DNA from: a virus
Lineage: Duplodnaviria; Heunggongvirae; Uroviricota; Caudoviricetes
IMG/VR virus record: IMGVR_UViG_2724679539_000001
Location: 1 to 25,496 of that record
Reading direction: 5' to 3' (one strand)
DNA: 25,496 bases
Shown: piece after piece, positions 459 to 25,038 of the stretch
Layout: every line of letters starts with the position of its first letter
How positions within the stretch are numbered: position 1 is the first letter of the stretch
Notes under the pieces: generated by a model
Told to the model about the DNA's origin: nothing
What the model saw: the letters and a program-made list of their open reading frames with translations, nothing else
The model's database searches: none
Position numbers and translations under genes: made by a program

Positions 459-463
459 ATCCC

Positions 464-1776: not shown

Positions 1777-1794
1777 TGCAAAATGTTTTATGTG

Positions 1795-1816
1795 AAACCG
1801 CCTGCGGGCGGTTTTG
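1795..1816 (+). terminator. Stem-loop between I and J (AAACCGCC-tgcg-GGCGGTTT, then TGTCATTT)
   Basis: 8-bp inverted repeat with 4-nt loop and a T-rich tail in the I-J gap; could be an attenuator or RNA structure. Mirror copy at 23681-23702 on the minus strand. Confidence 0.35.
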
Positions 1817-1836
1817 TCATTTATGGAGCGTGAGGA

Positions 1837-4800: not shown

Positions 4801-5316
4801 GATATCAGCGGTAACGTGAATGCGAACTCCGGGACGCTCAACAACGTCACGATTAACGAGAACTGCCGGGTTCTGGGAAAACTGTCCGCGAACCAGATTG
4901 AAGGCGATCTCGTTAAAACAGTGGGCAAAGCTTTCCCCCGTGACTCCCGTGCACCGGAACGGTGGCCATCAGGGACCATTACCGTCAGGGTTTATGACGA
5001 TCAGCCGTTTGACCGGCAGATTGTTATTCCAGCGGTGGCTTTCAGCGGTGCCAGACATGAACGGGAGAATAGCGATACTTATTCGTCATGCCGCCTGATA
5101 GTGAAGAAAAACGGGGCTGAAATTTATAACCGAACGGCTCTGGATAATACTCTGATTTACACGGGTGTTATTGATATGCCTGCAGGCAGTGGCGTAATGA
5201 CACTGGAGTTTTCGGTATCAGCATGGTGGGTAAATGGCTGGTATCCCACAGCAAGTATCAGCGATTTGCTGGTTGTGGTGATGAAGAAAGCCACCGCAGG
5301 CATCAGTATCAGCTGA
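1837..5316 (+). CDS. J: Tail tip attachment / host specificity protein J (lambda gpJ-like)
   Basis: 1159-aa ORF starting [34 protein letters not shown], near-identical to the lambda J N-terminus as recalled. Preceded by GAGG RBS. Fibronectin-like central repeats and a C-terminal receptor-binding region. Confidence 0.95.
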
Positions 5317-5335
5317 ATTTTATAACCCCAATACG

Positions 5336-5359
5336 GGCGTCAGAAATGACGCCTTTTTT
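5336..5359 (+). terminator. Rho-independent terminator downstream of J
   Basis: GGCGTCA-gaaa-TGACGCC followed by TTTTTT. Mirror copy at 20138-20161 on the minus strand. Confidence 0.65.
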
Positions 5360-5383
5360 ATTGCAGAAAAGCGAGAGGTAATT

Positions 5384-5983
5384 ATGCGTAAATTATGTGC
5401 TGTTATTCTGTCCGCAGTAGTCTGGCTGGTTGCCGCTGGTACGCCAGCGAGCGCAGCAGAGCATCAGTCCACACTAAGCGCCGGGTATCTTCAGGCCCAT
5501 ACTGATATGCCAGGCAGTGATGACCTGAAGGGCATTAACGTGAAATACCGTTATGAATTTACGGACACGCTGGGGCTGGTGACGTCATTCAGTTATGCCA
5601 ATGCCAAAGATGAGCAAAAAACGCATTACAGCGATACCCGCTGGCATGAAGATTCCGTGCGTAACCGCTGGTTCAGCATGATGGCGGGGCCATCTGTACG
5701 CGTGAATGAATGGTTCAGTGCTTATGCGATGGCAGGTGTGGCTTACAGCCGTGTTTCGACGTTCTCCGGGGATTATCTCCGCGTAACTGACAACAAGGGG
5801 AAAACGCACGATGTGCTGACCGGAAGTGATGACGATCGCCACAGCAACACGTCTCTGGCGTGGGGAGCTGGCGTGCAGTTTAACCCGACCGAATCCGTGG
5901 CCATTGATATTGCTTATGAAGGCTCCGGCAGTGGCGACTGGCGCACTGACGGTTTCATCGTGGGTGTCGGTTATAAGTTCTGA
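5384..5983 (+). CDS. lom: Lom-like outer membrane protein (Ail/Lom/PagC beta-barrel family)
   Basis: 199-aa ORF with signal peptide MRKLCAVILSAVVWLVAAGTPASA and a C-terminal aromatic residue (…VGYKF) typical of OMP barrels. Closely resembles lambda Lom; sits directly after J as in lambda. Confidence 0.9.
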   Translation: MRKLCAVILSAVVWLVAAGTPASAAEHQSTLSAGYLQAHTDMPGSDDLKGINVKYRYEFTDTLGLVTSFSYANAKDEQKTHYSDTRWHEDSVRNRWFSMMAGPSVRVNEWFSAYAMAGVAYSRVSTFSGDYLRVTDNKGKTHDVLTGSDDDRHSNTSLAWGAGVQFNPTESVAIDIAYEGSGSGDWRTDGFIVGVGYKF

Positions 5984-6009
5984 TTAGCCAGGTAACACAG
6001 TGTTATGAC

Positions 6010-6036
6010 AGCCCGCCGGTTCAGGCGGGCTTTTTT
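6010..6036 (+). terminator. Rho-independent terminator downstream of lom
   Basis: AGCCCGCC-ggttca-GGCGGGCT followed by TTTTTT. Mirror copy at 19461-19487 on the minus strand. Confidence 0.7.
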
Positions 6037-6047
6037 GTGGAGTGGAT

Positions 6048-8429
6048 ATGGCAGCAGTAAAAATCTCAGGTGTGCTGAAAGATGGTGCGGGAAAACCAAT
6101 ACAGAACTGCACTATTCAACTGAAGGCAAAGCGTAACAGCACCACGGTACTGGTGAACACGGTGGCCTCTGAAAATCCGGATGAAGCCGGGCGTTACAGC
6201 ATGGATGTTGAGTATGGTCAGTACAGCGTCACCCTGCTGGTTGAAGGTTTTCCGCCTTCACATGCCGGGACCATTACCGTCTATGAAGGTTCCAGACCAG
6301 GTACGCTGAATGATTTTCTCGGTGCCATGACGGAAGATGATGTCATGCCGGAGGCATTGCGTCGTTTTGAGGAAATGGTGGAAGAAGCGGCACGCAACGC
6401 TGAAGCCGCCTCTCAGAGCGCAGCGGCGGCAAAGAAATCCGAAACTGCAGCGGCATCATCGAAGAACGCGGCGAAAACCTCAGAAACGAATGCAGCTAAC
6501 AGCGCACAGGCGGCAGCGGCCTCGCAGACTGCATCGGCAAACTCCGCAACAGCAGCTAAAAAATCAGAAACCAACGCGAAAAATAGCGAGACAGCCGCAA
6601 AGACGAGCGAAACCAACGCAAAGTCCAGCCAGACGGCAGCGAAGACCAGCGAAACGAATGCCAAAGCCAGTGAAACTGCGGCAAAAAACAGCCAGGTTGC
6701 AGCAGCCCAAAGCGAGAGCGCGGCAGCCGGTTCTGCGACTTCAGCAGCTGGATCAGCAACTGCTACGGCTAACAGCCAGAAAGCTGCGAAGACGAGTGAA
6801 ACTAACGCAAAGTCCAGCCAGACGGCAGCGAAGACCAGCGAAACGAATGCCAAAGCCAGTGAAACTGCGGCGAAAAGCAGTCAGGATGCAGCGGCTCAAA
6901 GCGAGAGTGCCGCAGCCAGTTCTGCAAGCGCGGCGGCTGCTTCTGCCACTGCATCAGCCAACAGTCAAAAAGCAGCAAAAACCAGTGAAACCAATGCAAA
7001 GGCGAGCGAGACTGCGGCGGCTAACTCGGCGAAAGCATCCGCAGCAAGCCAGACGGCTGCAAAAGCAAGTGAAGACGCAGCCAGAGAGTATGCAAGCCAG
7101 GCTGCGGAGCCGTATAAACAAGTTTTGCAGCCGCTTCCCGATGTGTGGATACCATTTAACGATTCGCTGGATATGATTACGGGCTTTTCGCCGTCATATA
7201 AAAAGATTGTTATTGGTGATGATGAAATAACGATGCCTGGCGATAAGGTTGTAAAGTTTAAACGCGCATCAAAAGCAACTTACATTAATAAATCTGGTGT
7301 GCTGACAGAGGCTGCCATTGACGAGCCACGGTTTGAACGTGATGGCCTGCTTATTGAGGGGCAAAGAACTAATCTTCTGCTTAATTCAACAAATCCATCT
7401 AAATGGAATAAGTCAGGCAATCTGGAACTCACAGAAATATCCACGGATTCATTTAATTTTACTTATGGGAGATTTACTGTAAAAGATACTCTTATTGATC
7501 AGACAAGTGCGATTAATATCGCAACGGTTTCTGGCAGTAAAGGATTTGATGTCACAGGTGATGAAAAATATGTGACCATTTCATGCCGTGTCAGAAGTGA
7601 TGTTGAAAATATAAGGTGTCGTTTAAGATTTGAACATCATGATGGTTCTACTTACACTTTTTTGGGAGATGCTTACCTCAATTTATCAACACTTGTAATT
7701 GATAAGACTGGTGGTGCAGCAAATCGTATTATTGCAAAAGCTGTAAAAGATGAGGCTACTGGTTGGATTTTCTATCAGGCTACAATTAATGCACTAGATA
7801 CAGAGAGCATGATTGGTGCGATGGTTCAATATGCTCCAGTAAAAGGTTCAGGCACAGCATCTGGAGACTATCTGGATATCGCAACTCCACAAGTGGAAGG
7901 TGGATCAAGTGCTTCGTCATTTATTGTAACTGATATAACTGCAAGCACTCGCGCAAGCGATATGGTGACAGTCCCAATCAAGAATAACCTTTATAATCTT
8001 CCTTTTACGGTTCTTTGTGAGGTACATAAGAACTGGTATAAAACGCCAAATGCAGCACCGCGTGTTTTTGATACCGGCGGTCATCAAACCGGAGCGGCTA
8101 TTATTCTTGGCTTCGGTCGTTCAACAGATTACGACGGATTTCCTTATTGTGATATAGGTTTGGCTAACAGACGGGTAAACGAAAACGCATCGCTTGAAAA
8201 AATGGTTATGGGGATGCGTGTAAAGTCAGATCAGTCTACGTGCTCAGTAAGTAACGGGCGTATATCCAGCGAAACAAAAACCACATGGTCTTATATTCAG
8301 AACACCGCAATTATCCGTATTGGAGGCCAGACTACAGCCGGGTTACGTCATTTGTTTGGACACATCAGGAATTTCAGAATATGGCATAAAGAATTAACTG
8401 ATGCGCAAATGGGGGAGAGTATTAAATGA
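6048..8429 (+). CDS. stf: Side tail fibre protein with Stf-like N-terminal domain, Ala/Ser/Thr-rich repeat shaft and divergent AT-rich C-terminal domain
   Basis: N-terminus MAAVKISGVLKDGAGKPIQNCTIQLKAKRNSTTVLVNTVASENPDEAGRYSMDVEYGQYSV matches lambda Stf as recalled. The ORF track starts at GTG 6042; ATG at 6048 with GGAG 5 nt upstream is the more likely start. Confidence 0.85.
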   Translation: MAAVKISGVLKDGAGKPIQNCTIQLKAKRNSTTVLVNTVASENPDEAGRYSMDVEYGQYSVTLLVEGFPPSHAGTITVYEGSRPGTLNDFLGAMTEDDVMPEALRRFEEMVEEAARNAEAASQSAAAAKKSETAAASSKNAAKTSETNAANSAQAAAASQTASANSATAAKKSETNAKNSETAAKTSETNAKSSQTAAKTSETNAKASETAAKNSQVAAAQSESAAAGSATSAAGSATATANSQKAAKTSETNAKSSQTAAKTSETNAKASETAAKSSQDAAAQSESAAASSASAAAASATASANSQKAAKTSETNAKASETAAANSAKASAASQTAAKASEDAAREYASQAAEPYKQVLQPLPDVWIPFNDSLDMITGFSPSYKKIVIGDDEITMPGDKVVKFKRASKATYINKSGVLTEAAIDEPRFERDGLLIEGQRTNLLLNSTNPSKWNKSGNLELTEISTDSFNFTYGRFTVKDTLIDQTSAINIATVSGSKGFDVTGDEKYVTISCRVRSDVENIRCRLRFEHHDGSTYTFLGDAYLNLSTLVIDKTGGAANRIIAKAVKDEATGWIFYQATINALDTESMIGAMVQYAPVKGSGTASGDYLDIATPQVEGGSSASSFIVTDITASTRASDMVTVPIKNNLYNLPFTVLCEVHKNWYKTPNAAPRVFDTGGHQTGAAIILGFGRSTDYDGFPYCDIGLANRRVNENASLEKMVMGMRVKSDQSTCSVSNGRISSETKTTWSYIQNTAIIRIGGQTTAGLRHLFGHIRNFRIWHKELTDAQMGESIK
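6596..6929 (+). repeat. Internal tandem direct repeat inside stf (period 189 bp = 63 aa; two near-identical units with a 63-bp perfect core)
   Basis: 6621-6683 is identical to 6810-6872 (aagtccagccagacggcagcgaagaccagcgaaacgaatgccaaagccagtgaaactgcggc); flanks are ~85% identical. Encodes repeating KTSETNAK(A/S)S(E/Q)TAAK motifs. Confidence 0.85.
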
Positions 8430-8707
8430 AAGATTTAACACTCAAATTTGCAGACAGGGCCGACTTTTCGGCCTTTATGGAGAGTGCTGGCTATTATGAT
8501 GACGAGTCGATGCAGGATGATATTCTTATTGACGTGATAGGTAACGTGTACAAAGAAACCGGAGAACTTACTGAAGATGGCGAGCCGGTATGTGTTAAGG
8601 AAGACGGATATTTTGTAAACGTGCGCATCATTAATGATGTGAAAACACCGTCAATATTCGATGAATACGTGGTTGCTGTTGAGCATCAACTTCGTGGCTG
8701 GATGTGA
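8426..8707 (+). CDS. Hypothetical protein (93 aa), acidic, translationally coupled to stf (ATGA overlap)
   Basis: ORF with ATG overlapping the stf stop; AT-rich codon usage like its neighbours; no recognisable motif. Confidence 0.55.
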   Translation: MKDLTLKFADRADFSAFMESAGYYDDESMQDDILIDVIGNVYKETGELTEDGEPVCVKEDGYFVNVRIINDVKTPSIFDEYVVAVEHQLRGWM

Positions 8708-8716
8708 GGAAGAATA

Positions 8717-9757
8717 ATGGCTACATCGACAGTAATTCCTGATGACATCAAAACGCTAAAATCCGATGTTAGCAAATTAAAAAACGATCAAGGAAGCTAC
8801 GTAACAAAATCATATGTAGACAGCAAAAATGAAACCGTTAATGACTGGTCTGCTGCATGGTATCAGCAGGTACTGCCAACTAGCGGAGCTATATTTGGGC
8901 GAAAACTTCGCTCAACTCACAGGACGGCAGGTGTTGAGGATGCGTATTGCGAACTATACCTTAAAAAATGGATAGACAGCCCAGGGAACGCAATGGCGCG
9001 CCTTAACCTGAACGATAACGGTGAAAATATTTGCTGGGATTTTACCAACCTTTACGGCGGAACAATGATCTTCCCTGGTACTTCAGGCTATCTGAAAATG
9101 GGGAACTGTCTCATGTCGTATAGTGTGCGGGGAAGTAACGCGCTTATTAAGTTTGATTACACCGACACATTACAGATCAAATATGCTAATCATGGGTCAA
9201 CCATGACATTAACCACACAGGGATCCGCTCACGCTGGCGTAACAACTAGACTATGGGGTAATTCTAGCCGTCCGGTTGTTTATGAAGTTGGCGTAGATGA
9301 GGCTCTGTATATGTTCTACGCACAGAAAACTACCAGCAATACCTACGAATTAACGGTTAACGGCGCGTGCAATGCAAGTGCATTTAATCAAGGCTCTGAC
9401 CGGGATCTGAAAGACAATATTCAGGTGATCGATAATGCAACCGACCGCATTCGTAAAATGAACGGCTATACATACACGCTTAAAGAAAACGGTATGCCTT
9501 ACGCTGGTGTTATTGCACAAGAAACCCTGGAAGCCATCCCCGAAGCCGTAGGGTCTATGATGAAATATCCAGACGGCGGGAGTGGATTAGATGGAGAAGA
9601 AGGTGAACGGTATTACACAGTAGATTATTCTGGTGTTACTGGCTTGCTTGTTCAGGTAGCCAGAGAGTCGGACGACAGAATAACAGCACTGGAAGAAGAA
9701 AACGCAGAATTAAGACAAAGATTATCTGCAATTGAGGCGGCGCTTGCGTCTAAATAA
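8717..9757 (+). CDS. Tail fibre/tailspike-like protein with C-terminal peptidase S74 intramolecular chaperone (autoproteolytic) domain
   Basis: 346-aa ORF with GAGGA RBS. C-terminal region SDRDLKDNIQVIDNATDRIRKMNGYTYTLKENG...AGVIAQE followed by a coiled-coil tail (ITALEEENAELRQRLSAIEAALASK) fits the S74 chaperone signature with a Ser-x4-Lys dyad. Confidence 0.7.
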   Translation: MATSTVIPDDIKTLKSDVSKLKNDQGSYVTKSYVDSKNETVNDWSAAWYQQVLPTSGAIFGRKLRSTHRTAGVEDAYCELYLKKWIDSPGNAMARLNLNDNGENICWDFTNLYGGTMIFPGTSGYLKMGNCLMSYSVRGSNALIKFDYTDTLQIKYANHGSTMTLTTQGSAHAGVTTRLWGNSSRPVVYEVGVDEALYMFYAQKTTSNTYELTVNGACNASAFNQGSDRDLKDNIQVIDNATDRIRKMNGYTYTLKENGMPYAGVIAQETLEAIPEAVGSMMKYPDGGSGLDGEEGERYYTVDYSGVTGLLVQVARESDDRITALEEENAELRQRLSAIEAALASK

Positions 9758-9763
9758 TATTAA

Positions 9764-9786
9764 GGGGCCGAGCGCCCCGTTTTATT
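9764..9786 (+). terminator. Candidate terminator hairpin downstream of the S74-domain gene
   Basis: GGGGC-cgagc-GCCCC followed by GTTTTATT. Mirror copy at 15711-15733 on the minus strand. Confidence 0.45.
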
Positions 9787-9793
9787 GGGTAGG

Positions 9794-10087
9794 ATGAAAA
9801 TGGATATAACACCTTTCCTTCATGCACTTTGTGCTGTGGCTGCGCAGCTACTGATTGGTCTTTTTACCGGGAACTGGGCTTACGGTGCGATAGCCGGTTG
9901 TACGTTCTTCATCGCTCGTGAACATACCCAGGCAGAATATCGCTGGATTGAAATGTTCGGGCATGGCAAGCGTATGAATATGCCGTGGTGGGGCGGTTTT
10001 GATCCTCGCGCGTGGGATGTAGCAAGCCTGATGGATTTTGCTGTGCCGGTGGTGGCGTGTTTACTTGTATTTATATTTTTTGAATAA
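9794..10087 (+). CDS. Hypothetical small membrane protein (two predicted transmembrane segments)
   Basis: The ORF track begins at TTG 9785; ATG at 9794 or 9800 (GGTAGGA 5 nt upstream of 9800) is more plausible. Hydrophobic segments FLHALCAVAAQLLIGLF and VPVVACLLVFIFF. Confidence 0.55.
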   Translation: MKMDITPFLHALCAVAAQLLIGLFTGNWAYGAIAGCTFFIAREHTQAEYRWIEMFGHGKRMNMPWWGGFDPRAWDVASLMDFAVPVVACLLVFIFFE

Positions 10088-10092
10088 AATTA

Positions 10093-10119
10093 AGACCCCA
10101 TCTATAACTGATGGGGTCT
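10093..10119. terminator. Bidirectional terminator-like hairpin between the convergent membrane-protein gene and sopB
   Basis: Perfect 10-bp inverted repeat AGACCCCATC-tataact-GATGGGGTCT with A/T-rich flanks on both sides. Mirror copy at 15378-15404. Confidence 0.5.
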
Positions 10120-10135
10120 ATTCTATTTTCTGCTA

Positions 10136-11125
10136 TTAGTTATTTTTTACATCGGAAGAATTTCCAAACGCCTCCTCAAGAATAGATTCAATTTTACTCA
10201 TTAGGTGCGATGGTATTTTTCTGTTATCTAATTTTAATGTTGTGAAATTTTTCCCATATTTCGCCACAACACCGTCTCCATATTTCTTTTCCCTTTTCTC
10301 TCCATGTGAATTGTTTTTCTCAACAATAATGAAATCATGAAGAGCCTGTATTATTCTTTGCGCATCTAAACTTTCACCTGATTTTTTCATCCTCAGCAAC
10401 TGAGATGCAGCATTTTTCATGGCTGCTTCCTGTCCCTGATATGCTTTAAAAAGAGCGTCTCCTGCTCTGGCTGATAACTCACCAGGATGGTTAAATATTG
10501 CCAATATATCTTTAGGTAAACCGGCTGTATTAATACATCGGCTGATAATATTTCTATCCACGCCTTCGGCTTCAGCTAAAGATTTTACGTTACCGTCAAA
10601 TTCATGGAGCCTTCGCAGGTATCTTTTCCCCCTTTCATAGGCGCTGATAGGTCTATAGTCGTTGCCTATCTGCGATAACCATTGCATTTGTTCATCATCT
10701 AAATCGCCAATAAGAACACGATAATCGCATCCAGTTATAATGGCTGCTTTACGTCTTCGAGAACCATCAGCTACTTCAACAATACCTGACACTTTTCTTG
10801 CGAAAGCCGGATTTTGTTGCCCAGAAGTTAGAAAAGATGGAATTAAATCAGCTAGAGAAGATTCATTTAATAAATCTTGATCACGCTCATTACCTAGCCA
10901 TACCATTGTTGCCATTTCTACTTTATCTGCGGGGATCGTCTCTAACTTAAAGTTAACATTACGTCCGCATACTGGCAAAGTTATGCTATTACCGGTTAAT
11001 GAACTCAGTTGACGTTTTAAATCACCAACCATAGGTGATACCGGCTGATGTTCAGGTGCATGATGATTATTACTCATAATGCGATTAATATCCGGAGCAT
11101 TTTTTAGAAGAGAGCGTTGTTTCAT
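10136..11125 (-). CDS. sopB: Partition protein SopB (ParB family, type Ia)
   Basis: 329-aa ORF. N-terminal two-thirds resemble F-plasmid SopB (ITLPVCGR, WxGNERDQ, GQQ.PAF, DGSRRRKAA, NDYRP.SAYERG, FSHPGELSA-like motifs); the C-terminus is divergent. ATG overlaps the sopA stop. Confidence 0.9.
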   Translation of the reverse strand: MKQRSLLKNAPDINRIMSNNHHAPEHQPVSPMVGDLKRQLSSLTGNSITLPVCGRNVNFKLETIPADKVEMATMVWLGNERDQDLLNESSLADLIPSFLTSGQQNPAFARKVSGIVEVADGSRRRKAAIITGCDYRVLIGDLDDEQMQWLSQIGNDYRPISAYERGKRYLRRLHEFDGNVKSLAEAEGVDRNIISRCINTAGLPKDILAIFNHPGELSARAGDALFKAYQGQEAAMKNAASQLLRMKKSGESLDAQRIIQALHDFIIVEKNNSHGEKREKKYGDGVVAKYGKNFTTLKLDNRKIPSHLMSKIESILEEAFGNSSDVKNN

Positions 11126-12291
11126 TCTTCGTTCTCCCAGCGAGGTTTTATTAGATCATCAAAAATTTCTCGACAAACAGGGTCCCATATAGAGACGGCA
11201 TTTCTCCATGCATTAAGTGTTGAACGCTGGTTTGCCGCTTGTTCAAATACTGTTCGCATTTTTATCTGACCTTTACCTACTTCATCGGTAACGCGTACAA
11301 CCTGACGTAATACCATTGATCCCCATGTATTTCTTATTTGCTCTTCCATCCATCGTGATTGATTTCCTGTAGTGAGACTATATTTAGTCAGAAGCAAGCG
11401 AACGGTCGGCTCAAATCCGCCTAGGTCAACGCTTTCTAGGAGATCGAGAAGCATTGTGAAAAACTGTAGAACAGAGGCGTAATCAAATAATTCTGCAGGG
11501 GTAGCAACAACGATAACGTCAGCTGCGCAAACAACGTTAATGGTTCCTGTACCGAGGTTTGGAGCACTATCTATAACGATAACATCGTAGTTATCCCAAA
11601 CTGATTCTATAGCTGCGCGTAGCATCAGGTGAGGAGGGTGAGGCAATTTACCCTGAGCATGATATTGCATGAGATCTGTTTCTATACGGTGTAAAGCTAG
11701 GCAGCTAGGAATAATGTCCAGTCCAGGCCAGCATGTTGGTTTTATAGCATATTCAGCGTTATCGCGTTCGCCCAAGTAAAATGGCAGTAAAGTATCCTCG
11801 GCATGTATATGTAAATCAGGTACATAACCGTGATACATGGAGGCTGTTCCCTGAGGATCGTTACCTTCAACTAAAAGAACACGATGACCTTGTAATGCTA
11901 GCCATTGTGCCTGATGTACTGCAGACGATGTTTTATAAACTCCGCCTTTGTGTGACATAACAGCAAGCACAACTGGGTTTTTATCTTGTGGCCGTTGGTT
12001 TGGGTTGCCAAAAACAGCTCGCATACTATTGATTTGATCTATGGTATAACCGGCACGACGTTCAACTCTTCCTCTCATTTCAAAGTCAGGTGCAGGTAAA
12101 CGCCCGTTCTTCTCAGCATCTCTTATTGCTTGAGGAGTTACACCAATTAAATCTGCTACTTCAGTTATCCCCCATCTACGCGTGATACGCCGAGCTTCAG
12201 GACTATCATCACCGAATTGAGCTATAGCAATTGCTTGGGTCATTTCTTGACCGCGCGTAACACAATCTTGTAATAACTTTTTCAAAGACAT
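11122..12291 (-). CDS. sopA: Partition ATPase SopA (ParA family, type Ia with N-terminal HTH extension)
   Basis: 389-aa ORF with deviant Walker A KGGVYKTS and a long N-terminal extension. High similarity to F/N15 SopA as recalled (LLVEGNDPQGTASMYHG, IDSAPNLG, KGQIRMRTVFEQA-like blocks). GGAG RBS. Confidence 0.95.
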   Translation of the reverse strand: MSLKKLLQDCVTRGQEMTQAIAIAQFGDDSPEARRITRRWGITEVADLIGVTPQAIRDAEKNGRLPAPDFEMRGRVERRAGYTIDQINSMRAVFGNPNQRPQDKNPVVLAVMSHKGGVYKTSSAVHQAQWLALQGHRVLLVEGNDPQGTASMYHGYVPDLHIHAEDTLLPFYLGERDNAEYAIKPTCWPGLDIIPSCLALHRIETDLMQYHAQGKLPHPPHLMLRAAIESVWDNYDVIVIDSAPNLGTGTINVVCAADVIVVATPAELFDYASVLQFFTMLLDLLESVDLGGFEPTVRLLLTKYSLTTGNQSRWMEEQIRNTWGSMVLRQVVRVTDEVGKGQIKMRTVFEQAANQRSTLNAWRNAVSIWDPVCREIFDDLIKPRWENEE

Positions 12292-12312
12292 ACTGTCATC
12301 TCCAGCTTATAA

Positions 12313-12390
12313 CTTTGCTTAATAATTATTGCTTTGCATATTTCTAGCAAATTGACATAGAAAAAGCAAAGTAAAACAAAAAAGGCAAAG
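12313..12390 (-). promoter_or_regulatory. Putative sopAB promoter/operator region with four CTTTGC/GCAAAG hexamers
   Basis: Hexamers at 12313-12318, 12332-12337, 12366-12371 and 12385-12390, immediately upstream of sopA. F SopA is known to autoregulate via CTTTGC repeats overlapping its promoter. Exact -35/-10 not resolved. Confidence 0.45.
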
Positions 12391-12570
12391 ACGAAGATTT
12401 GAACAAAATCATCTTTTGTTTTATCCCTTAAATGCAAAAAAAAACAACGGCAAGATCATAACAAATTGATAATAAAGGATTTTTTAAAAGAAAGGAAATC
12501 GTATAAAACTAGTGAAACATGATGAAAATCATCAATGAGATACGTTTCCTCTATTTATTCTCCTAATCCT

Positions 12571-12720
12571 CACCAACAAAAGAACACAATCAAAGATCGT
12601 AAAACAACAATAATAATTCACACAAAATAAAGAACACAAATACAGAAAACAACAACACAATAAAAACAAGAGAACACAAGCTATAAATATTACACCAATA
12701 GAGAACACTAATCAAGAACA
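12571..12720. repeat. Array of AGAACACA(A) direct repeats flanking the telomere palindrome (left arm)
   Basis: AGAACACAAT at 12581-12590, AGAACACAAA at 12631-12640, AACAACACAA at 12651-12660, AGAACACAAG at 12671-12680, GAGAACACTA at 12701-12710, and GAACA at 12716-12720 abutting the palindrome. Confidence 0.6.
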
Positions 12721-12776
12721 TATCAGCACATAATTTCCCATTATACGCGCGTATAATGGGAAATTATGTGCTGATA
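12721..12776. other. 56-bp perfect palindrome at the symmetry axis; putative protelomerase target / hairpin telomere (telRL/telO-like)
   Basis: Sequence TATCAGCACATAATTTCCCATTATACGCGCGTATAATGGGAAATTATGTGCTGATA. The central 22 bp match the N15 telO core as I recall it; the flanking arms differ from N15 at a few positions. Sits immediately beyond sopA, as telL does in N15. Confidence 0.75.
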
Positions 12777-12926
12777 TGTTCTTGATTAGTGTTCTCTATT
12801 GGTGTAATATTTATAGCTTGTGTTCTCTTGTTTTTATTGTGTTGTTGTTTTCTGTATTTGTGTTCTTTATTTTGTGTGAATTATTATTGTTGTTTTACGA
12901 TCTTTGATTGTGTTCTTTTGTTGGTG
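12777..12926. repeat. Mirror copy of the AGAACACA repeat array (right arm, opposite orientation)
   Basis: Reverse complement of 12571-12720 (TGTGTTCT motifs). Confidence 0.6.
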
Positions 12927-13106
12927 AGGATTAGGAGAATAAATAGAGGAAACGTATCTCATTGATGATTTTCATCATGTTTCACTAGTTTTATACGATT
13001 TCCTTTCTTTTAAAAAATCCTTTATTATCAATTTGTTATGATCTTGCCGTTGTTTTTTTTTGCATTTAAGGGATAAAACAAAAGATGATTTTGTTCAAAT
13101 CTTCGT

Positions 13107-13184
13107 CTTTGCCTTTTTTGTTTTACTTTGCTTTTTCTATGTCAATTTGCTAGAAATATGCAAAGCAATAATTATTAAGCAAAG
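13107..13184 (+). promoter_or_regulatory. Putative sopAB promoter/operator region (mirror copy)
   Basis: Mirror of 12313-12390; CTTTGC/GCAAAG hexamers upstream of the second sopA copy. Confidence 0.45.
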
Positions 13185-13205
13185 TTATAAGCTGGAGATG
13201 ACAGT

Positions 13206-14375
13206 ATGTCTTTGAAAAAGTTATTACAAGATTGTGTTACGCGCGGTCAAGAAATGACCCAAGCAATTGCTATAGCTCAATTCGGTGATGATAGTCCTGA
13301 AGCTCGGCGTATCACGCGTAGATGGGGGATAACTGAAGTAGCAGATTTAATTGGTGTAACTCCTCAAGCAATAAGAGATGCTGAGAAGAACGGGCGTTTA
13401 CCTGCACCTGACTTTGAAATGAGAGGAAGAGTTGAACGTCGTGCCGGTTATACCATAGATCAAATCAATAGTATGCGAGCTGTTTTTGGCAACCCAAACC
13501 AACGGCCACAAGATAAAAACCCAGTTGTGCTTGCTGTTATGTCACACAAAGGCGGAGTTTATAAAACATCGTCTGCAGTACATCAGGCACAATGGCTAGC
13601 ATTACAAGGTCATCGTGTTCTTTTAGTTGAAGGTAACGATCCTCAGGGAACAGCCTCCATGTATCACGGTTATGTACCTGATTTACATATACATGCCGAG
13701 GATACTTTACTGCCATTTTACTTGGGCGAACGCGATAACGCTGAATATGCTATAAAACCAACATGCTGGCCTGGACTGGACATTATTCCTAGCTGCCTAG
13801 CTTTACACCGTATAGAAACAGATCTCATGCAATATCATGCTCAGGGTAAATTGCCTCACCCTCCTCACCTGATGCTACGCGCAGCTATAGAATCAGTTTG
13901 GGATAACTACGATGTTATCGTTATAGATAGTGCTCCAAACCTCGGTACAGGAACCATTAACGTTGTTTGCGCAGCTGACGTTATCGTTGTTGCTACCCCT
14001 GCAGAATTATTTGATTACGCCTCTGTTCTACAGTTTTTCACAATGCTTCTCGATCTCCTAGAAAGCGTTGACCTAGGCGGATTTGAGCCGACCGTTCGCT
14101 TGCTTCTGACTAAATATAGTCTCACTACAGGAAATCAATCACGATGGATGGAAGAGCAAATAAGAAATACATGGGGATCAATGGTATTACGTCAGGTTGT
14201 ACGCGTTACCGATGAAGTAGGTAAAGGTCAGATAAAAATGCGAACAGTATTTGAACAAGCGGCAAACCAGCGTTCAACACTTAATGCATGGAGAAATGCC
14301 GTCTCTATATGGGACCCTGTTTGTCGAGAAATTTTTGATGATCTAATAAAACCTCGCTGGGAGAACGAAGAATGA
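13206..14375 (+). CDS. sopA: Partition ATPase SopA (mirror copy)
   Basis: Protein identical to the 11122-12291 ORF. Confidence 0.95.
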   Translation: MSLKKLLQDCVTRGQEMTQAIAIAQFGDDSPEARRITRRWGITEVADLIGVTPQAIRDAEKNGRLPAPDFEMRGRVERRAGYTIDQINSMRAVFGNPNQRPQDKNPVVLAVMSHKGGVYKTSSAVHQAQWLALQGHRVLLVEGNDPQGTASMYHGYVPDLHIHAEDTLLPFYLGERDNAEYAIKPTCWPGLDIIPSCLALHRIETDLMQYHAQGKLPHPPHLMLRAAIESVWDNYDVIVIDSAPNLGTGTINVVCAADVIVVATPAELFDYASVLQFFTMLLDLLESVDLGGFEPTVRLLLTKYSLTTGNQSRWMEEQIRNTWGSMVLRQVVRVTDEVGKGQIKMRTVFEQAANQRSTLNAWRNAVSIWDPVCREIFDDLIKPRWENEE

Positions 14376-15361
14376 AACAACGCTCTCTTCTAAAAAATGC
14401 TCCGGATATTAATCGCATTATGAGTAATAATCATCATGCACCTGAACATCAGCCGGTATCACCTATGGTTGGTGATTTAAAACGTCAACTGAGTTCATTA
14501 ACCGGTAATAGCATAACTTTGCCAGTATGCGGACGTAATGTTAACTTTAAGTTAGAGACGATCCCCGCAGATAAAGTAGAAATGGCAACAATGGTATGGC
14601 TAGGTAATGAGCGTGATCAAGATTTATTAAATGAATCTTCTCTAGCTGATTTAATTCCATCTTTTCTAACTTCTGGGCAACAAAATCCGGCTTTCGCAAG
14701 AAAAGTGTCAGGTATTGTTGAAGTAGCTGATGGTTCTCGAAGACGTAAAGCAGCCATTATAACTGGATGCGATTATCGTGTTCTTATTGGCGATTTAGAT
14801 GATGAACAAATGCAATGGTTATCGCAGATAGGCAACGACTATAGACCTATCAGCGCCTATGAAAGGGGGAAAAGATACCTGCGAAGGCTCCATGAATTTG
14901 ACGGTAACGTAAAATCTTTAGCTGAAGCCGAAGGCGTGGATAGAAATATTATCAGCCGATGTATTAATACAGCCGGTTTACCTAAAGATATATTGGCAAT
15001 ATTTAACCATCCTGGTGAGTTATCAGCCAGAGCAGGAGACGCTCTTTTTAAAGCATATCAGGGACAGGAAGCAGCCATGAAAAATGCTGCATCTCAGTTG
15101 CTGAGGATGAAAAAATCAGGTGAAAGTTTAGATGCGCAAAGAATAATACAGGCTCTTCATGATTTCATTATTGTTGAGAAAAACAATTCACATGGAGAGA
15201 AAAGGGAAAAGAAATATGGAGACGGTGTTGTGGCGAAATATGGGAAAAATTTCACAACATTAAAATTAGATAACAGAAAAATACCATCGCACCTAATGAG
15301 TAAAATTGAATCTATTCTTGAGGAGGCGTTTGGAAATTCTTCCGATGTAAAAAATAACTAA
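14372..15361 (+). CDS. sopB: Partition protein SopB (mirror copy)
   Basis: Protein identical to the 10136-11125 ORF. Confidence 0.9.
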   Translation: MKQRSLLKNAPDINRIMSNNHHAPEHQPVSPMVGDLKRQLSSLTGNSITLPVCGRNVNFKLETIPADKVEMATMVWLGNERDQDLLNESSLADLIPSFLTSGQQNPAFARKVSGIVEVADGSRRRKAAIITGCDYRVLIGDLDDEQMQWLSQIGNDYRPISAYERGKRYLRRLHEFDGNVKSLAEAEGVDRNIISRCINTAGLPKDILAIFNHPGELSARAGDALFKAYQGQEAAMKNAASQLLRMKKSGESLDAQRIIQALHDFIIVEKNNSHGEKREKKYGDGVVAKYGKNFTTLKLDNRKIPSHLMSKIESILEEAFGNSSDVKNN

Positions 15362-15409
15362 TAGCAGAAAATAGAATAGACCCCATCAGTTATAGATGGG
15401 GTCTTAATT

Positions 15410-15703
15410 TTATTCAAAAAATATAAATACAAGTAAACACGCCACCACCGGCACAGCAAAATCCATCAGGCTTGCTACATCCCACGCGCGAGGATCAAAA
15501 CCGCCCCACCACGGCATATTCATACGCTTGCCATGCCCGAACATTTCAATCCAGCGATATTCTGCCTGGGTATGTTCACGAGCGATGAAGAACGTACAAC
15601 CGGCTATCGCACCGTAAGCCCAGTTCCCGGTAAAAAGACCAATCAGTAGCTGCGCAGCCACAGCACAAAGTGCATGAAGGAAAGGTGTTATATCCATTTT
15701 CAT
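15410..15703 (-). CDS. Hypothetical small membrane protein (mirror copy)
   Basis: Mirror of 9794-10087. Confidence 0.55.
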   Translation of the reverse strand: MKMDITPFLHALCAVAAQLLIGLFTGNWAYGAIAGCTFFIAREHTQAEYRWIEMFGHGKRMNMPWWGGFDPRAWDVASLMDFAVPVVACLLVFIFFE

Positions 15704-15739
15704 CCTACCCAATAAAACGGGGCGCTCGGCCCCTTAATA

Positions 15740-16780
15740 TTATTTAGACGCAAGCGCCGCCTCAATTGCAGATAATCTTTGTCTTAATTCTGCGTTTTCT
15801 TCTTCCAGTGCTGTTATTCTGTCGTCCGACTCTCTGGCTACCTGAACAAGCAAGCCAGTAACACCAGAATAATCTACTGTGTAATACCGTTCACCTTCTT
15901 CTCCATCTAATCCACTCCCGCCGTCTGGATATTTCATCATAGACCCTACGGCTTCGGGGATGGCTTCCAGGGTTTCTTGTGCAATAACACCAGCGTAAGG
16001 CATACCGTTTTCTTTAAGCGTGTATGTATAGCCGTTCATTTTACGAATGCGGTCGGTTGCATTATCGATCACCTGAATATTGTCTTTCAGATCCCGGTCA
16101 GAGCCTTGATTAAATGCACTTGCATTGCACGCGCCGTTAACCGTTAATTCGTAGGTATTGCTGGTAGTTTTCTGTGCGTAGAACATATACAGAGCCTCAT
16201 CTACGCCAACTTCATAAACAACCGGACGGCTAGAATTACCCCATAGTCTAGTTGTTACGCCAGCGTGAGCGGATCCCTGTGTGGTTAATGTCATGGTTGA
16301 CCCATGATTAGCATATTTGATCTGTAATGTGTCGGTGTAATCAAACTTAATAAGCGCGTTACTTCCCCGCACACTATACGACATGAGACAGTTCCCCATT
16401 TTCAGATAGCCTGAAGTACCAGGGAAGATCATTGTTCCGCCGTAAAGGTTGGTAAAATCCCAGCAAATATTTTCACCGTTATCGTTCAGGTTAAGGCGCG
16501 CCATTGCGTTCCCTGGGCTGTCTATCCATTTTTTAAGGTATAGTTCGCAATACGCATCCTCAACACCTGCCGTCCTGTGAGTTGAGCGAAGTTTTCGCCC
16601 AAATATAGCTCCGCTAGTTGGCAGTACCTGCTGATACCATGCAGCAGACCAGTCATTAACGGTTTCATTTTTGCTGTCTACATATGATTTTGTTACGTAG
16701 CTTCCTTGATCGTTTTTTAATTTGCTAACATCGGATTTTAGCGTTTTGATGTCATCAGGAATTACTGTCGATGTAGCCAT
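15740..16780 (-). CDS. Tail fibre-like protein with S74 intramolecular chaperone domain (mirror copy)
   Basis: Protein identical to the 8717-9757 ORF. Confidence 0.7.
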   Translation of the reverse strand: MATSTVIPDDIKTLKSDVSKLKNDQGSYVTKSYVDSKNETVNDWSAAWYQQVLPTSGAIFGRKLRSTHRTAGVEDAYCELYLKKWIDSPGNAMARLNLNDNGENICWDFTNLYGGTMIFPGTSGYLKMGNCLMSYSVRGSNALIKFDYTDTLQIKYANHGSTMTLTTQGSAHAGVTTRLWGNSSRPVVYEVGVDEALYMFYAQKTTSNTYELTVNGACNASAFNQGSDRDLKDNIQVIDNATDRIRKMNGYTYTLKENGMPYAGVIAQETLEAIPEAVGSMMKYPDGGSGLDGEEGERYYTVDYSGVTGLLVQVARESDDRITALEEENAELRQRLSAIEAALASK

Positions 16781-16789
16781 TATTCTTCC

Positions 16790-17071
16790 TCACATCCAGC
16801 CACGAAGTTGATGCTCAACAGCAACCACGTATTCATCGAATATTGACGGTGTTTTCACATCATTAATGATGCGCACGTTTACAAAATATCCGTCTTCCTT
16901 AACACATACCGGCTCGCCATCTTCAGTAAGTTCTCCGGTTTCTTTGTACACGTTACCTATCACGTCAATAAGAATATCATCCTGCATCGACTCGTCATCA
17001 TAATAGCCAGCACTCTCCATAAAGGCCGAAAAGTCGGCCCTGTCTGCAAATTTGAGTGTTAAATCTTTCAT
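16790..17071 (-). CDS. Hypothetical protein, 93 aa (mirror copy)
   Basis: Protein identical to the 8426-8707 ORF. Confidence 0.55.
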   Translation of the reverse strand: MKDLTLKFADRADFSAFMESAGYYDDESMQDDILIDVIGNVYKETGELTEDGEPVCVKEDGYFVNVRIINDVKTPSIFDEYVVAVEHQLRGWM

Positions 17072-19449
17072 TTAATACTCTCCCCCATTTGCGCATCAGT
17101 TAATTCTTTATGCCATATTCTGAAATTCCTGATGTGTCCAAACAAATGACGTAACCCGGCTGTAGTCTGGCCTCCAATACGGATAATTGCGGTGTTCTGA
17201 ATATAAGACCATGTGGTTTTTGTTTCGCTGGATATACGCCCGTTACTTACTGAGCACGTAGACTGATCTGACTTTACACGCATCCCCATAACCATTTTTT
17301 CAAGCGATGCGTTTTCGTTTACCCGTCTGTTAGCCAAACCTATATCACAATAAGGAAATCCGTCGTAATCTGTTGAACGACCGAAGCCAAGAATAATAGC
17401 CGCTCCGGTTTGATGACCGCCGGTATCAAAAACACGCGGTGCTGCATTTGGCGTTTTATACCAGTTCTTATGTACCTCACAAAGAACCGTAAAAGGAAGA
17501 TTATAAAGGTTATTCTTGATTGGGACTGTCACCATATCGCTTGCGCGAGTGCTTGCAGTTATATCAGTTACAATAAATGACGAAGCACTTGATCCACCTT
17601 CCACTTGTGGAGTTGCGATATCCAGATAGTCTCCAGATGCTGTGCCTGAACCTTTTACTGGAGCATATTGAACCATCGCACCAATCATGCTCTCTGTATC
17701 TAGTGCATTAATTGTAGCCTGATAGAAAATCCAACCAGTAGCCTCATCTTTTACAGCTTTTGCAATAATACGATTTGCTGCACCACCAGTCTTATCAATT
17801 ACAAGTGTTGATAAATTGAGGTAAGCATCTCCCAAAAAAGTGTAAGTAGAACCATCATGATGTTCAAATCTTAAACGACACCTTATATTTTCAACATCAC
17901 TTCTGACACGGCATGAAATGGTCACATATTTTTCATCACCTGTGACATCAAATCCTTTACTGCCAGAAACCGTTGCGATATTAATCGCACTTGTCTGATC
18001 AATAAGAGTATCTTTTACAGTAAATCTCCCATAAGTAAAATTAAATGAATCCGTGGATATTTCTGTGAGTTCCAGATTGCCTGACTTATTCCATTTAGAT
18101 GGATTTGTTGAATTAAGCAGAAGATTAGTTCTTTGCCCCTCAATAAGCAGGCCATCACGTTCAAACCGTGGCTCGTCAATGGCAGCCTCTGTCAGCACAC
18201 CAGATTTATTAATGTAAGTTGCTTTTGATGCGCGTTTAAACTTTACAACCTTATCGCCAGGCATCGTTATTTCATCATCACCAATAACAATCTTTTTATA
18301 TGACGGCGAAAAGCCCGTAATCATATCCAGCGAATCGTTAAATGGTATCCACACATCGGGAAGCGGCTGCAAAACTTGTTTATACGGCTCCGCAGCCTGG
18401 CTTGCATACTCTCTGGCTGCGTCTTCACTTGCTTTTGCAGCCGTCTGGCTTGCTGCGGATGCTTTCGCCGAGTTAGCCGCCGCAGTCTCGCTCGCCTTTG
18501 CATTGGTTTCACTGGTTTTTGCTGCTTTTTGACTGTTGGCTGATGCAGTGGCAGAAGCAGCCGCCGCGCTTGCAGAACTGGCTGCGGCACTCTCGCTTTG
18601 AGCCGCTGCATCCTGACTGCTTTTCGCCGCAGTTTCACTGGCTTTGGCATTCGTTTCGCTGGTCTTCGCTGCCGTCTGGCTGGACTTTGCGTTAGTTTCA
18701 CTCGTCTTCGCAGCTTTCTGGCTGTTAGCCGTAGCAGTTGCTGATCCAGCTGCTGAAGTCGCAGAACCGGCTGCCGCGCTCTCGCTTTGGGCTGCTGCAA
18801 CCTGGCTGTTTTTTGCCGCAGTTTCACTGGCTTTGGCATTCGTTTCGCTGGTCTTCGCTGCCGTCTGGCTGGACTTTGCGTTGGTTTCGCTCGTCTTTGC
18901 GGCTGTCTCGCTATTTTTCGCGTTGGTTTCTGATTTTTTAGCTGCTGTTGCGGAGTTTGCCGATGCAGTCTGCGAGGCCGCTGCCGCCTGTGCGCTGTTA
19001 GCTGCATTCGTTTCTGAGGTTTTCGCCGCGTTCTTCGATGATGCCGCTGCAGTTTCGGATTTCTTTGCCGCCGCTGCGCTCTGAGAGGCGGCTTCAGCGT
19101 TGCGTGCCGCTTCTTCCACCATTTCCTCAAAACGACGCAATGCCTCCGGCATGACATCATCTTCCGTCATGGCACCGAGAAAATCATTCAGCGTACCTGG
19201 TCTGGAACCTTCATAGACGGTAATGGTCCCGGCATGTGAAGGCGGAAAACCTTCAACCAGCAGGGTGACGCTGTACTGACCATACTCAACATCCATGCTG
19301 TAACGCCCGGCTTCATCCGGATTTTCAGAGGCCACCGTGTTCACCAGTACCGTGGTGCTGTTACGCTTTGCCTTCAGTTGAATAGTGCAGTTCTGTATTG
19401 GTTTTCCCGCACCATCTTTCAGCACACCTGAGATTTTTACTGCTGCCAT
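17068..19449 (-). CDS. stf: Stf-like side tail fibre protein (mirror copy)
   Basis: Protein identical to the 6048-8429 ORF. Confidence 0.85.
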   Translation of the reverse strand: MAAVKISGVLKDGAGKPIQNCTIQLKAKRNSTTVLVNTVASENPDEAGRYSMDVEYGQYSVTLLVEGFPPSHAGTITVYEGSRPGTLNDFLGAMTEDDVMPEALRRFEEMVEEAARNAEAASQSAAAAKKSETAAASSKNAAKTSETNAANSAQAAAASQTASANSATAAKKSETNAKNSETAAKTSETNAKSSQTAAKTSETNAKASETAAKNSQVAAAQSESAAAGSATSAAGSATATANSQKAAKTSETNAKSSQTAAKTSETNAKASETAAKSSQDAAAQSESAAASSASAAAASATASANSQKAAKTSETNAKASETAAANSAKASAASQTAAKASEDAAREYASQAAEPYKQVLQPLPDVWIPFNDSLDMITGFSPSYKKIVIGDDEITMPGDKVVKFKRASKATYINKSGVLTEAAIDEPRFERDGLLIEGQRTNLLLNSTNPSKWNKSGNLELTEISTDSFNFTYGRFTVKDTLIDQTSAINIATVSGSKGFDVTGDEKYVTISCRVRSDVENIRCRLRFEHHDGSTYTFLGDAYLNLSTLVIDKTGGAANRIIAKAVKDEATGWIFYQATINALDTESMIGAMVQYAPVKGSGTASGDYLDIATPQVEGGSSASSFIVTDITASTRASDMVTVPIKNNLYNLPFTVLCEVHKNWYKTPNAAPRVFDTGGHQTGAAIILGFGRSTDYDGFPYCDIGLANRRVNENASLEKMVMGMRVKSDQSTCSVSNGRISSETKTTWSYIQNTAIIRIGGQTTAGLRHLFGHIRNFRIWHKELTDAQMGESIK
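18568..18901 (-). repeat. Internal 189-bp tandem repeat inside stf (mirror copy)
   Basis: Mirror of 6596-6929. Confidence 0.85.
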
Positions 19450-19513
19450 ATCCACTCCACAAAAAAGCCCGCCTGAACCGGCGGGCTGTCATAACACTGT
19501 GTTACCTGGCTAA

Positions 19514-20113
19514 TCAGAACTTATAACCGACACCCACGATGAAACCGTCAGTGCGCCAGTCGCCACTGCCGGAGCCTTCATAAGCAATATCAATGGCCAC
19601 GGATTCGGTCGGGTTAAACTGCACGCCAGCTCCCCACGCCAGAGACGTGTTGCTGTGGCGATCGTCATCACTTCCGGTCAGCACATCGTGCGTTTTCCCC
19701 TTGTTGTCAGTTACGCGGAGATAATCCCCGGAGAACGTCGAAACACGGCTGTAAGCCACACCTGCCATCGCATAAGCACTGAACCATTCATTCACGCGTA
19801 CAGATGGCCCCGCCATCATGCTGAACCAGCGGTTACGCACGGAATCTTCATGCCAGCGGGTATCGCTGTAATGCGTTTTTTGCTCATCTTTGGCATTGGC
19901 ATAACTGAATGACGTCACCAGCCCCAGCGTGTCCGTAAATTCATAACGGTATTTCACGTTAATGCCCTTCAGGTCATCACTGCCTGGCATATCAGTATGG
20001 GCCTGAAGATACCCGGCGCTTAGTGTGGACTGATGCTCTGCTGCGCTCGCTGGCGTACCAGCGGCAACCAGCCAGACTACTGCGGACAGAATAACAGCAC
20101 ATAATTTACGCAT
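19514..20113 (-). CDS. lom: Lom-like outer membrane protein (mirror copy)
   Basis: Protein identical to the 5384-5983 ORF. Confidence 0.9.
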   Translation of the reverse strand: MRKLCAVILSAVVWLVAAGTPASAAEHQSTLSAGYLQAHTDMPGSDDLKGINVKYRYEFTDTLGLVTSFSYANAKDEQKTHYSDTRWHEDSVRNRWFSMMAGPSVRVNEWFSAYAMAGVAYSRVSTFSGDYLRVTDNKGKTHDVLTGSDDDRHSNTSLAWGAGVQFNPTESVAIDIAYEGSGSGDWRTDGFIVGVGYKF

Positions 20114-20180
20114 AATTACCTCTCGCTTTTCTGCAATAAAAAAGGCGTCATTTCTGACGCCCGTATTGGGGTTATAAAAT

Positions 20181-23100: not shown

Positions 23101-23660
23101 TCCGGCGTCATTCTGCGCATCCGGATATTAAACGGGCGCGGCGGCAGGTTATCCACCACCACCGAGGCCAGATACTGCGAGGTGGTTTTGCCCTTAATGG
23201 TGATATCTTTTTCCGTCACCCAGCCACCATTACGCTGTATCTGAACCAGCAGGCGAACTTCCGACGGATTCCGGTCCCCCTTTGAGGTGGTTTCCACCAG
23301 TGCCTGCACACCGAAGGTAAAGCGCAGTCGGTCGATGTTTGCCGACGTGATGGCGCGGGTGATCGGCGTGTCGTATTTCACTTCCGTACCCAACACCGTC
23401 TCGGAGCCGGAGGATTCAAACCCCTCCGGCGGTGTCTGCTCCTGCTCACCGGCACGGAACACCACCGTGACACCGGAGATGTTGGTATTCCCCTCAGTGT
23501 CCAGCACCGGCGTACTGTTCAGCAGCACGCTTTTTAATCCATCCACCGGACCTTCAACCGGCCCTTCGCTGATGGCATCGATCACACTCAGCAACTGCGT
23601 GGACTTCAGGTTGTCCTTCGCTTCGCGCGGGGTATGCCCCTTACTGCTTCCTTTACTCAT
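20181..23660 (-). CDS. J: Host specificity protein J (mirror copy)
   Basis: Protein identical to the 1837-5316 ORF. Confidence 0.95.
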
Positions 23661-23720
23661 TCCTCACGCTCCATAAATGACAAAACCGCCCGCAGGCGGT
23701 TTCACATAAAACATTTTGCA

Positions 23721-25033: not shown

Positions 25034-25038
25034 GGGAT

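Follow-up and report, generated by a model that had tools for sequence, protein, structure and literature searches.

A linear DNA duplex whose ends are covalently closed hairpins is one continuous strand. In phage N15 (NC_001901), the telomere site telRL is a 56-bp inverted repeat, TATCAGCACACAATTGCCCATTATACGCGCGTATAATGGACTATTGTGTGCTGATA, with the cut at its centre; gene 28 (ParA-like) is on one side of it and gene 29 (protelomerase) on the other. A site of 56 bp is sufficient for the N15 protelomerase TelN (PMC3540006). Protelomerases cut the two strands 6 bp apart, with CGCGCG between the scissile positions in the target of TelK, and each strand is then resealed on itself, which leaves two hairpins (PMC3558466). 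For the tos ends of N15, a doubling of single-strand length has been shown (PMC13381899). Replication creates telRR and telLL sites, which TelN processes, the bound enzyme protects the end from SbcCD, Y425F is a catalytic mutant of TelN, and flanking repeats at the N15 tos region have been mentioned (PMC12624138). Phage phiKO2 (NC_005857) has the order sopA-telRL-protelomerase, with TelK as the enzyme, and the pal site of PY54 is the same kind of element, although it is a 42-bp palindrome with other arms (PMC3540006). N15-like phage-plasmids have been documented in Escherichia and Shigella (bioRxiv 10.1101/2025.09.12.675607), and one from Escherichia fergusonii has already been deposited (NZ_CP055678.1). 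In Borrelia, long reads wrap around the hairpins and leave terminal inverse duplications of 5-18 kb in assemblies, which are an accepted telomere signature (bioRxiv 10.1101/2025.07.18.665644).

A further relative, Escherichia phage PhiR46_1 (PV340565.1), is deposited as a linear record in which the ParA-side end is annotated as 'telR site' and the opposite end as 'telL site'; a literature search found no publication on it. Its telL end adjoins a RepA-type primase of 1,331 aa and a 633-aa 'hypothetical protein' in which the full set of four protelomerase Pfam domains is found and the HYKQF tyrosine motif is conserved; its identity to N15 TelN is 77%. The only solved relative of this protein is TelK of phiKO2 (2V6E), and the protein falls in a cluster of 682 sequence variants from E. 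coli and Shigella that is named protelomerase.

The palindromic contig

The window, by which we mean the whole stretch of 25,496 nt that was analysed, is the complete contig JZWQ02000009.1 of assembly GCA_000968905.2, from Escherichia fergusonii GTA-EF02 (beef trim). It is one perfect palindrome, and its axis, 12748|12749, is the exact midpoint of the sequence. A direct count outward from the axis gave 12,732 perfectly paired nucleotides per side, and a repeat search of the window returned a single inverted repeat with arms at 7-12748 and 12749-25490 that are 100% complementary and separated by 0 nt. The asymmetry of the window is confined to the outermost 16 nt, and GC skew is symmetrical about the axis, as a palindrome must give. 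The window is thus a spacer-free perfect inverted duplication, with 12,732 nt in each arm and with its axis at the predicted point of telomere resolution. The initial annotation had described a 56-bp perfect palindrome at 12721-12776; the symmetry at these positions is indeed perfect, but it is not a discrete element, as the pairing continues through both arms. The limit of 56 bp was taken over from N15, and the sequence of the window itself sets no such boundary. A perfect palindrome of 56 bp would arise by chance with a probability of about 4^-28 per position and is thus not a chance feature. As single-stranded DNA, the central 100 nt fold into a perfect hairpin with a 4-nt loop, which is trivial for any palindrome and was not used as evidence.

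We consider it very likely (probability of roughly 0.9) that the window represents one arm of an N15-like linear phage-plasmid of GTA-EF02, the sopA-side (telR) arm, written forward and then as its reverse complement, with the two copies joined at the telomere. The contig would be palindromic because the assembly, on reaching the hairpin, went round it and returned along the DNA it had already covered. The features of the window, read in this way, are as follows.

1-12748, plus strand: unique sequence, the sopA-side (telR) arm of the N15-like linear phage-plasmid, from inside tail gene L to the telomere axis
1-10087, plus strand: lambda-like tail module (92-96% DNA identity to lambdoid phages; Pfam), beginning with L (partial), K and I
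1837-5316, plus strand: J
5384-5983, plus strand: lom
6048-8429, plus strand: stf (side tail fibre), followed by a 93-aa open reading frame
8717-9757, plus strand: tail-fibre protein with an S74 chaperone domain, followed by a 95-aa open reading frame
10093-10119, unstranded: bidirectional terminator-like hairpin at the boundary of the tail-fibre module and the sop operon (10-bp stem, T tracts on both strands)
10136-11125, minus strand: sopB/parB, centromere-binding protein (Pfam SoPB_HTH; annotated ParB in relatives)
11122-12291, minus strand: sopA/parA, partition ATPase (Pfam AAA_31, CbiA and ParA; SopA WP_001555445.1 in relatives)
12581-12720, plus strand: five GAACA repeats in the same orientation beside the half-site, starting at 12582, 12632, 12672, 12703 and 12716
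12721-12776: 56-bp palindrome, TATCAGCACATAATTTCCCATTATACGCGCGTATAATGGGAAATTATGTGCTGATA, the telR half-site and its own mirror image
12721-12748, plus strand: telR half-site of 28 nt, TATCAGCACATAATTTCCCATTATACGC, equal to the annotated telR end of PhiR46_1
12738-12759, unstranded: telO core of 22 bp, CCATTATACGCGCGTATAATGG, equal to the perfectly palindromic centre of N15 telRL
12746-12751, unstranded: central CGCGCG (6 bp), read from the sequence, which would lie between the two staggered cuts
12749-12776, plus strand: mirror image of the telR half-site and not a native telN-side half, from comparison of flanks with relatives
12749-25496, minus strand: fold-back copy, the exact reverse complement of 1-12748, with independent sequence in the last 16 nt only
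25481-25496, plus strand: asymmetric 16 nt at the end of the contig (reverse complement TTACACACTTATACAT), with no match in the opposite arm

The two ends of the contig do not match alike. The first 16 nt are true gene L sequence, with an exact match to gene L of PhiR46_1, which the 3' end lacks. No gene L allele in 5,426 complete E. coli genomes extends into the 16 nt at 25481-25496, which makes the gene L allele of another prophage an unlikely source for them. A Nextera adapter was also considered by a comparison by eye with the mosaic end, and this origin was not called because the two have just an 8-mer in common.

The gene content of the arm combines a tail module with partition genes. 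G+C content is 51%-61% in the K-I-J-lom region (1-7000), 42%-46% in the distal fibre genes (7001-10000), 39%-43% in the sop region, and 33% adjoining the telomere, a gradient that fits a mosaic of lambdoid and N15-type modules. The stf gene carries tandem repeats of about 189 nt (6563-6830 versus 6752-7019, 81% identical). The mirrored half of the window gives false duplicate annotations, such as sopA at both 11122-12291 and 13206-14375. No RNA family was found in the arm with Rfam, and a promoter scan of the spacer between sopA and the tel site was uninformative, as it returned fewer consensus sites than shuffled sequences did. SopB centromere sites are scattered in N15. Palindromes of the form TGCGACC-NN-GGTCGCA number zero in the arm, and the window therefore holds partition genes without binding sites. 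In PhiR46_1, five dispersed copies of this palindrome occur at 7932, 10374, 14751, 17792, and 18012, including one within the primase gene; these candidate SopB centromere sites are located on the other arm.

The tel site and its relatives

The telO core was named correctly in the initial annotation, as CCATTATACGCGCGTATAATGG forms the central 22 bp of telRL in the N15 record, and a comparison with N15, phiKO2, and PY54 identifies it as the tel core of both N15 and phiKO2. The central CGCGCG at 12746-12751 is likewise identical to that of N15. The outer arms had been said to depart slightly from those of N15, and this is so: the half-site of the window is off at two of 28 positions from the sopA-side half of N15 and at four of 28 from the telN-side half, and the outer inverted repeat (TATCAGCACACAAT... 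in N15) is retained at 26/28 in the former comparison. N15 and the window further share the outer box TATCAGCACA-AAT and a site placed about 430-460 nt beyond sopA (429 nt of AT-rich DNA from the start of sopA in the window), but the sop genes (genes 27-28 in N15) are just about 73% identical in DNA and the native N15 site is perfectly palindromic for 22 bp only. From phiKO2, the half-site differs at three to five of 28 positions and the flank is different, whereas PY54 has the central TACGCGCGTA in common and a sop region of about 64% identity.

The flanking sequence resembles that of N15 as well. In the 172 nt outside the half-site, GAACA occurs five times against 0.39 expected, and none of 20,000 shuffles reached five. 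Four of the five copies have the form AGAACAC. N15 has an equal number of these repeats in the same orientation, and one copy abuts the site at -33 in N15 and the window alike. The sequence AACACAAT-AAAGA at about -165 is common to N15, phiKO2, and the E. coli relatives. The GAACA repeats can probably be equated with the 'additional flanking repeats' described for the tos region of N15, and we infer their role from this likeness. Every testable sequence criterion places the site in the N15-type tel family.

Variation within the family was also observed. The CAGCAC box is kept in N15, phiKO2, and most relatives, and becomes CGAAAC on the sopA side of pRHBSTW-00124_4 and of pEA8_3 from E. albertii. 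In this group, which is about 88% identical, the sopA-side outer box reads ACGAAAC instead of TCAGCAC (tel sites at 4769-4802 and 4771-4804 of the two stretches compared), while the telN side retains TCAGCAC; the native tel site of the group is markedly asymmetric. Position 13 from the axis (12736 and 12761 in the window) is T, C, or A among relatives and can differ between the halves of one native telRL (T/C in pS142-3, C/T in pEC12401-3). Variation is thus tolerated at this position, which acts as a spacer separating the core from the outer box.

Close relatives of the whole arm are already in the databases. PhiR46_1 and plasmid pS142-3 show 100% identity to the arm over its last 2,749 nt, a segment made up of sopB, sopA, the AT-rich repeat region, and the tel half-site. 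Over 12,435 nt the arm is 99.95% identical to a 45,442-bp contig of another assembly, and it is 97% identical to pEC21Z151-46K. PhiR46_1 also has a lambda-like tail module ahead of sopBA in the same gene order, but it departs from the window in the tail-fibre region (57% of the arm is covered, at 95.8% identity), and its record is a linear monomer that ends at the core, whereas the window continues into its own reverse complement. Judged from sequence, a deposited and annotated phage has the identical tel site, flanks, and partition genes, and the half-site occurs in many other E. coli plasmid records. The proposal of a related but distinct telomere thus does not hold: the telomere is already known and not new, because the same half-site has already been deposited and annotated.

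The location of the site can be read from the same relatives. Its placement beyond sopA, at an end of a linear plasmid-prophage, agrees with the initial annotation, which however had taken this end for telL; by the annotation of PhiR46_1 it is telR, and the N15 order sopA-telRL-telN fits this assignment. On the N15 map, the sopA-side end is presumably telR too. In the arrangement sopBA-site-protelomerase, the sopA side is present and the telN side is absent from the window because the contig folds back. A tblastn search found no protelomerase gene encoded within the window, as had been expected, and the relatives whose sopA-side terminus is 100% identical have both sides, with genes for a TelN homologue and a RepA primase at the opposite end.

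What lies to the right of the axis distinguishes the window from a native site. Five relatives that were deposited as circular records, pS142-3, pEC12401-3, pRHBSTW-00124_4, pEA8_3 (E. albertii), and p19KM1803_4, cross from the sopA side to the telN side. At these native junctions the perfect palindrome extends for merely 12-27 nt per arm, the upper value belonging to p19KM1803_4, whose native site is a 54-bp perfect palindrome. The telN-side half-site has the form …AAAATCAGCACATAATT[T/C]CCCATTATACGC, and the native right flank reads GCTGAT-TTTCAGAACAAAG in relatives and GCTGAT-TTTCAGAACAAAGTCAAG, leading to the protelomerase gene, in the five circular ones. In the window, by contrast, the sequence to the right is GCTGAT-ATGTTCTTGATTAG, which is the sopA side in reverse complement, and neither a telN-side half nor its flank follows the axis. 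The junction is therefore telR and its own complement (R|R') and not telRL, and the window is without an intact telRL because the whole contig is a fold-back. A sequence of the R|R' type arises by reading along the strand of a hairpin or by replication through the hairpin ('telRR').

Fold-backs in public records

The window is not the only record of this kind. Spacer-free inverted duplications with a telomere at the axis are found in Borrelia, pEC21Z151-14K, pF16EC0211-3, and IMG/VR 2703718687_000007, and some such assemblies are, like the window, whole contigs centred on the axis. The Borrelia duplications differ in that they are located at the ends of otherwise complete replicon contigs, whereas the window is a separate contig that stops inside gene L. 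In independent assemblies, we counted seven fold-backs at the sopA end and six at the telN end.

The 14,498-bp 'circular plasmid' pEC21Z151-14K (NZ_CP101203.1) consists of the same arm as a perfect palindrome of 2 x 7,249 nt, and for strain EC21Z-151 a second record, of 46,173 bp, spans the full element, telN and sopA being at its opposite ends. The plasmid p13TMH22-2 folds back at the same base as the window, and so does the YDC107 record described below. The 91,525-bp 'circular plasmid' pF16EC0211-3 (CP088430.1) contains both a sopA|sopA' and a telN|telN' junction, with axes at 22,682|3 (sopA end) and 68,112|3 (telN end). Its arms are about 98.5% alike, and its open reading frames are frameshifted. 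The record has twice the unit length and forms an inverted dimer, the structure to be expected from reading round both hairpins. In the 'complete chromosome' of E. coli YDC107 (NZ_CP025707.1), the sopA arm is folded back at 13811-21558 about an axis near 16,311. This fold-back is located within the first 20 kb or so of the record, with two mirrored sopA genes and gene L at 3586-3649, and is probably a linear phage-plasmid that was mis-joined into the chromosome assembly.

A wider view was obtained from IMG/VR, where the 22-bp core was present in 36 stretches. A sopA homologue, a telN homologue, or both adjoin the core in 35 of the 36, and the remaining stretch has no such homologue over 150 aa. 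Eight of the 36 are long fold-backs, three at the sopA end (one of these being a whole 13,664-bp contig centred on the axis) and five at the telN end. About 14 of the contigs stop 11-99 nt past the axis, and the rest are native junctions.

Origin and meaning of the palindrome

By analogy with N15 and phiKO2, we infer cleavage and rejoining at this site and a hairpin state of the telomere in GTA-EF02. The fold-back at the exact centre of the core, where the N15 record also places the cut, and linear records that stop at this point are indirect evidence for it. Reading along one strand, round the hairpin, and back would yield a perfect palindrome with the hairpin tip at its axis. A replicated telomere (telRR junction) would have the same sequence as a read-through of the hairpin. 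After replication through the hairpin, a dimer of a TelN-type protelomerase, encoded on the other arm, would bind the duplicated site and cut both strands 6 bp apart around the CGCGCG at 12746-12751 via 3'-phosphotyrosine links. The enzyme would then refold each strand and reseal it on itself, thereby regenerating two hairpin ends, and TelN bound at the end may also shield the telomere from SbcCD.

The reads that cross the axis could have come from either form of the DNA. The first version of the GTA-EF02 assembly was made with SPAdes from Nextera XT MiSeq reads (PMC4832150). As that library was tagmentation-based, the axis-crossing reads may stem from duplex replication intermediates and not from hairpins; if a tagmentation library was also used for version 2 of the assembly, the junction reads came more probably from duplex intermediates. 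The arms, which are error-free and of equal length, look like one edge of the assembly graph written together with its own complement.

These considerations bear on whether the palindrome might instead be a stable duplex in the cell, such as a circular head-to-head prophage dimer, or part of one, that stays unresolved, for example when TelN is defective or limiting. N15 does replicate via dimeric intermediates with telRR and telLL junctions (PMC12624138), a tagmentation library such as that of the first version sequences duplex junctions more readily than closed hairpins, and pF16EC0211-3 has been deposited as a complete inverted circle of twice the unit length. We nevertheless regard a stable duplex as unlikely. 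Its sequence would be identical to that of a hairpin read-through, and transient intermediates suffice to supply the junction reads; moreover, near-identical elements elsewhere are contigs of 45-47 kb that stop at the telomere, and the fold-back of EC21Z-151 coexists with a record of monomer length. Arms that are free of errors and exactly equal in length are also what is expected from an assembler that emits an edge and its complement. In the same vein, it is improbable that some or all of the prophage in GTA-EF02 stays in the form of an unresolved head-to-head inverted dimer, with telR|telR' as a stable duplex in vivo.

Two further readings of the junction carry still less weight. A chimeric inverted duplication that arose during library preparation or assembly and is unrelated to the telomere would accord with the known occurrence of inverted-repeat chimeras in sequencing libraries and with the 16 nt of unexplained sequence at one end of the contig, but its axis would then have to coincide, to the base, with the telO core centre as well as with the end annotated in PhiR46_1. 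A random chimera is not expected, because the base of the fold-back coincides with the core centre and recurs independently, other assemblies folding there too and also at the corresponding base of the opposite telomere; such an origin is thus highly improbable. The least credible reading is that of an intact, uncut telRL in circular or virion-form DNA that joins the sopA arm to the telN arm. It is true that the 56 bp resemble telRL of N15 and that among the closest relatives a native site can itself be a 54-bp perfect palindrome (p19KM1803_4). From position 28 outward, however, the right flank repeats the sopA side in reverse complement over 12.7 kb, unlike the five native junctions, and the window lacks telN; as the flank to the right of the axis mirrors the sopA side and not the telN side, an intact telRL was rejected.

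The preferred reading, an arm written forward and backward about its telomere, is therefore retained for the window. On this reading, the site is the hairpin end, already known, of a linear phage-plasmid of the N15 type, and the palindrome is an artefact of how this hairpin end is represented. The initial finding is real and right in kind, yet already known, and the N15 mechanism is well studied. Its practical value is the curation of this contig and of similar public records, with little biological novelty. The real sequence in JZWQ02000009.1 amounts to just 12,748 nt, so that the contig should be cut back to the axis, and the duplicated genes of the contig (two copies each of sopA, sopB, J, and others) are not real paralogues. 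The same fold-back is contained in public 'circular plasmids' of 14.5, 75, and 91.5 kb and in one 'chromosome' record.

If a persistent dimer were nevertheless to exist in GTA-EF02, it would point to a natural isolate in which TelN is limiting or defective, and short reads that span the junction would report intermediates of telomere resolution. GTA-EF02 carries a phage-plasmid with N15-like telomeres, on which the genome announcement (PMC4832150) is silent, and a whole-contig palindrome with the telO core at its axis offers a simple diagnostic for hairpin-ended replicons in assemblies.
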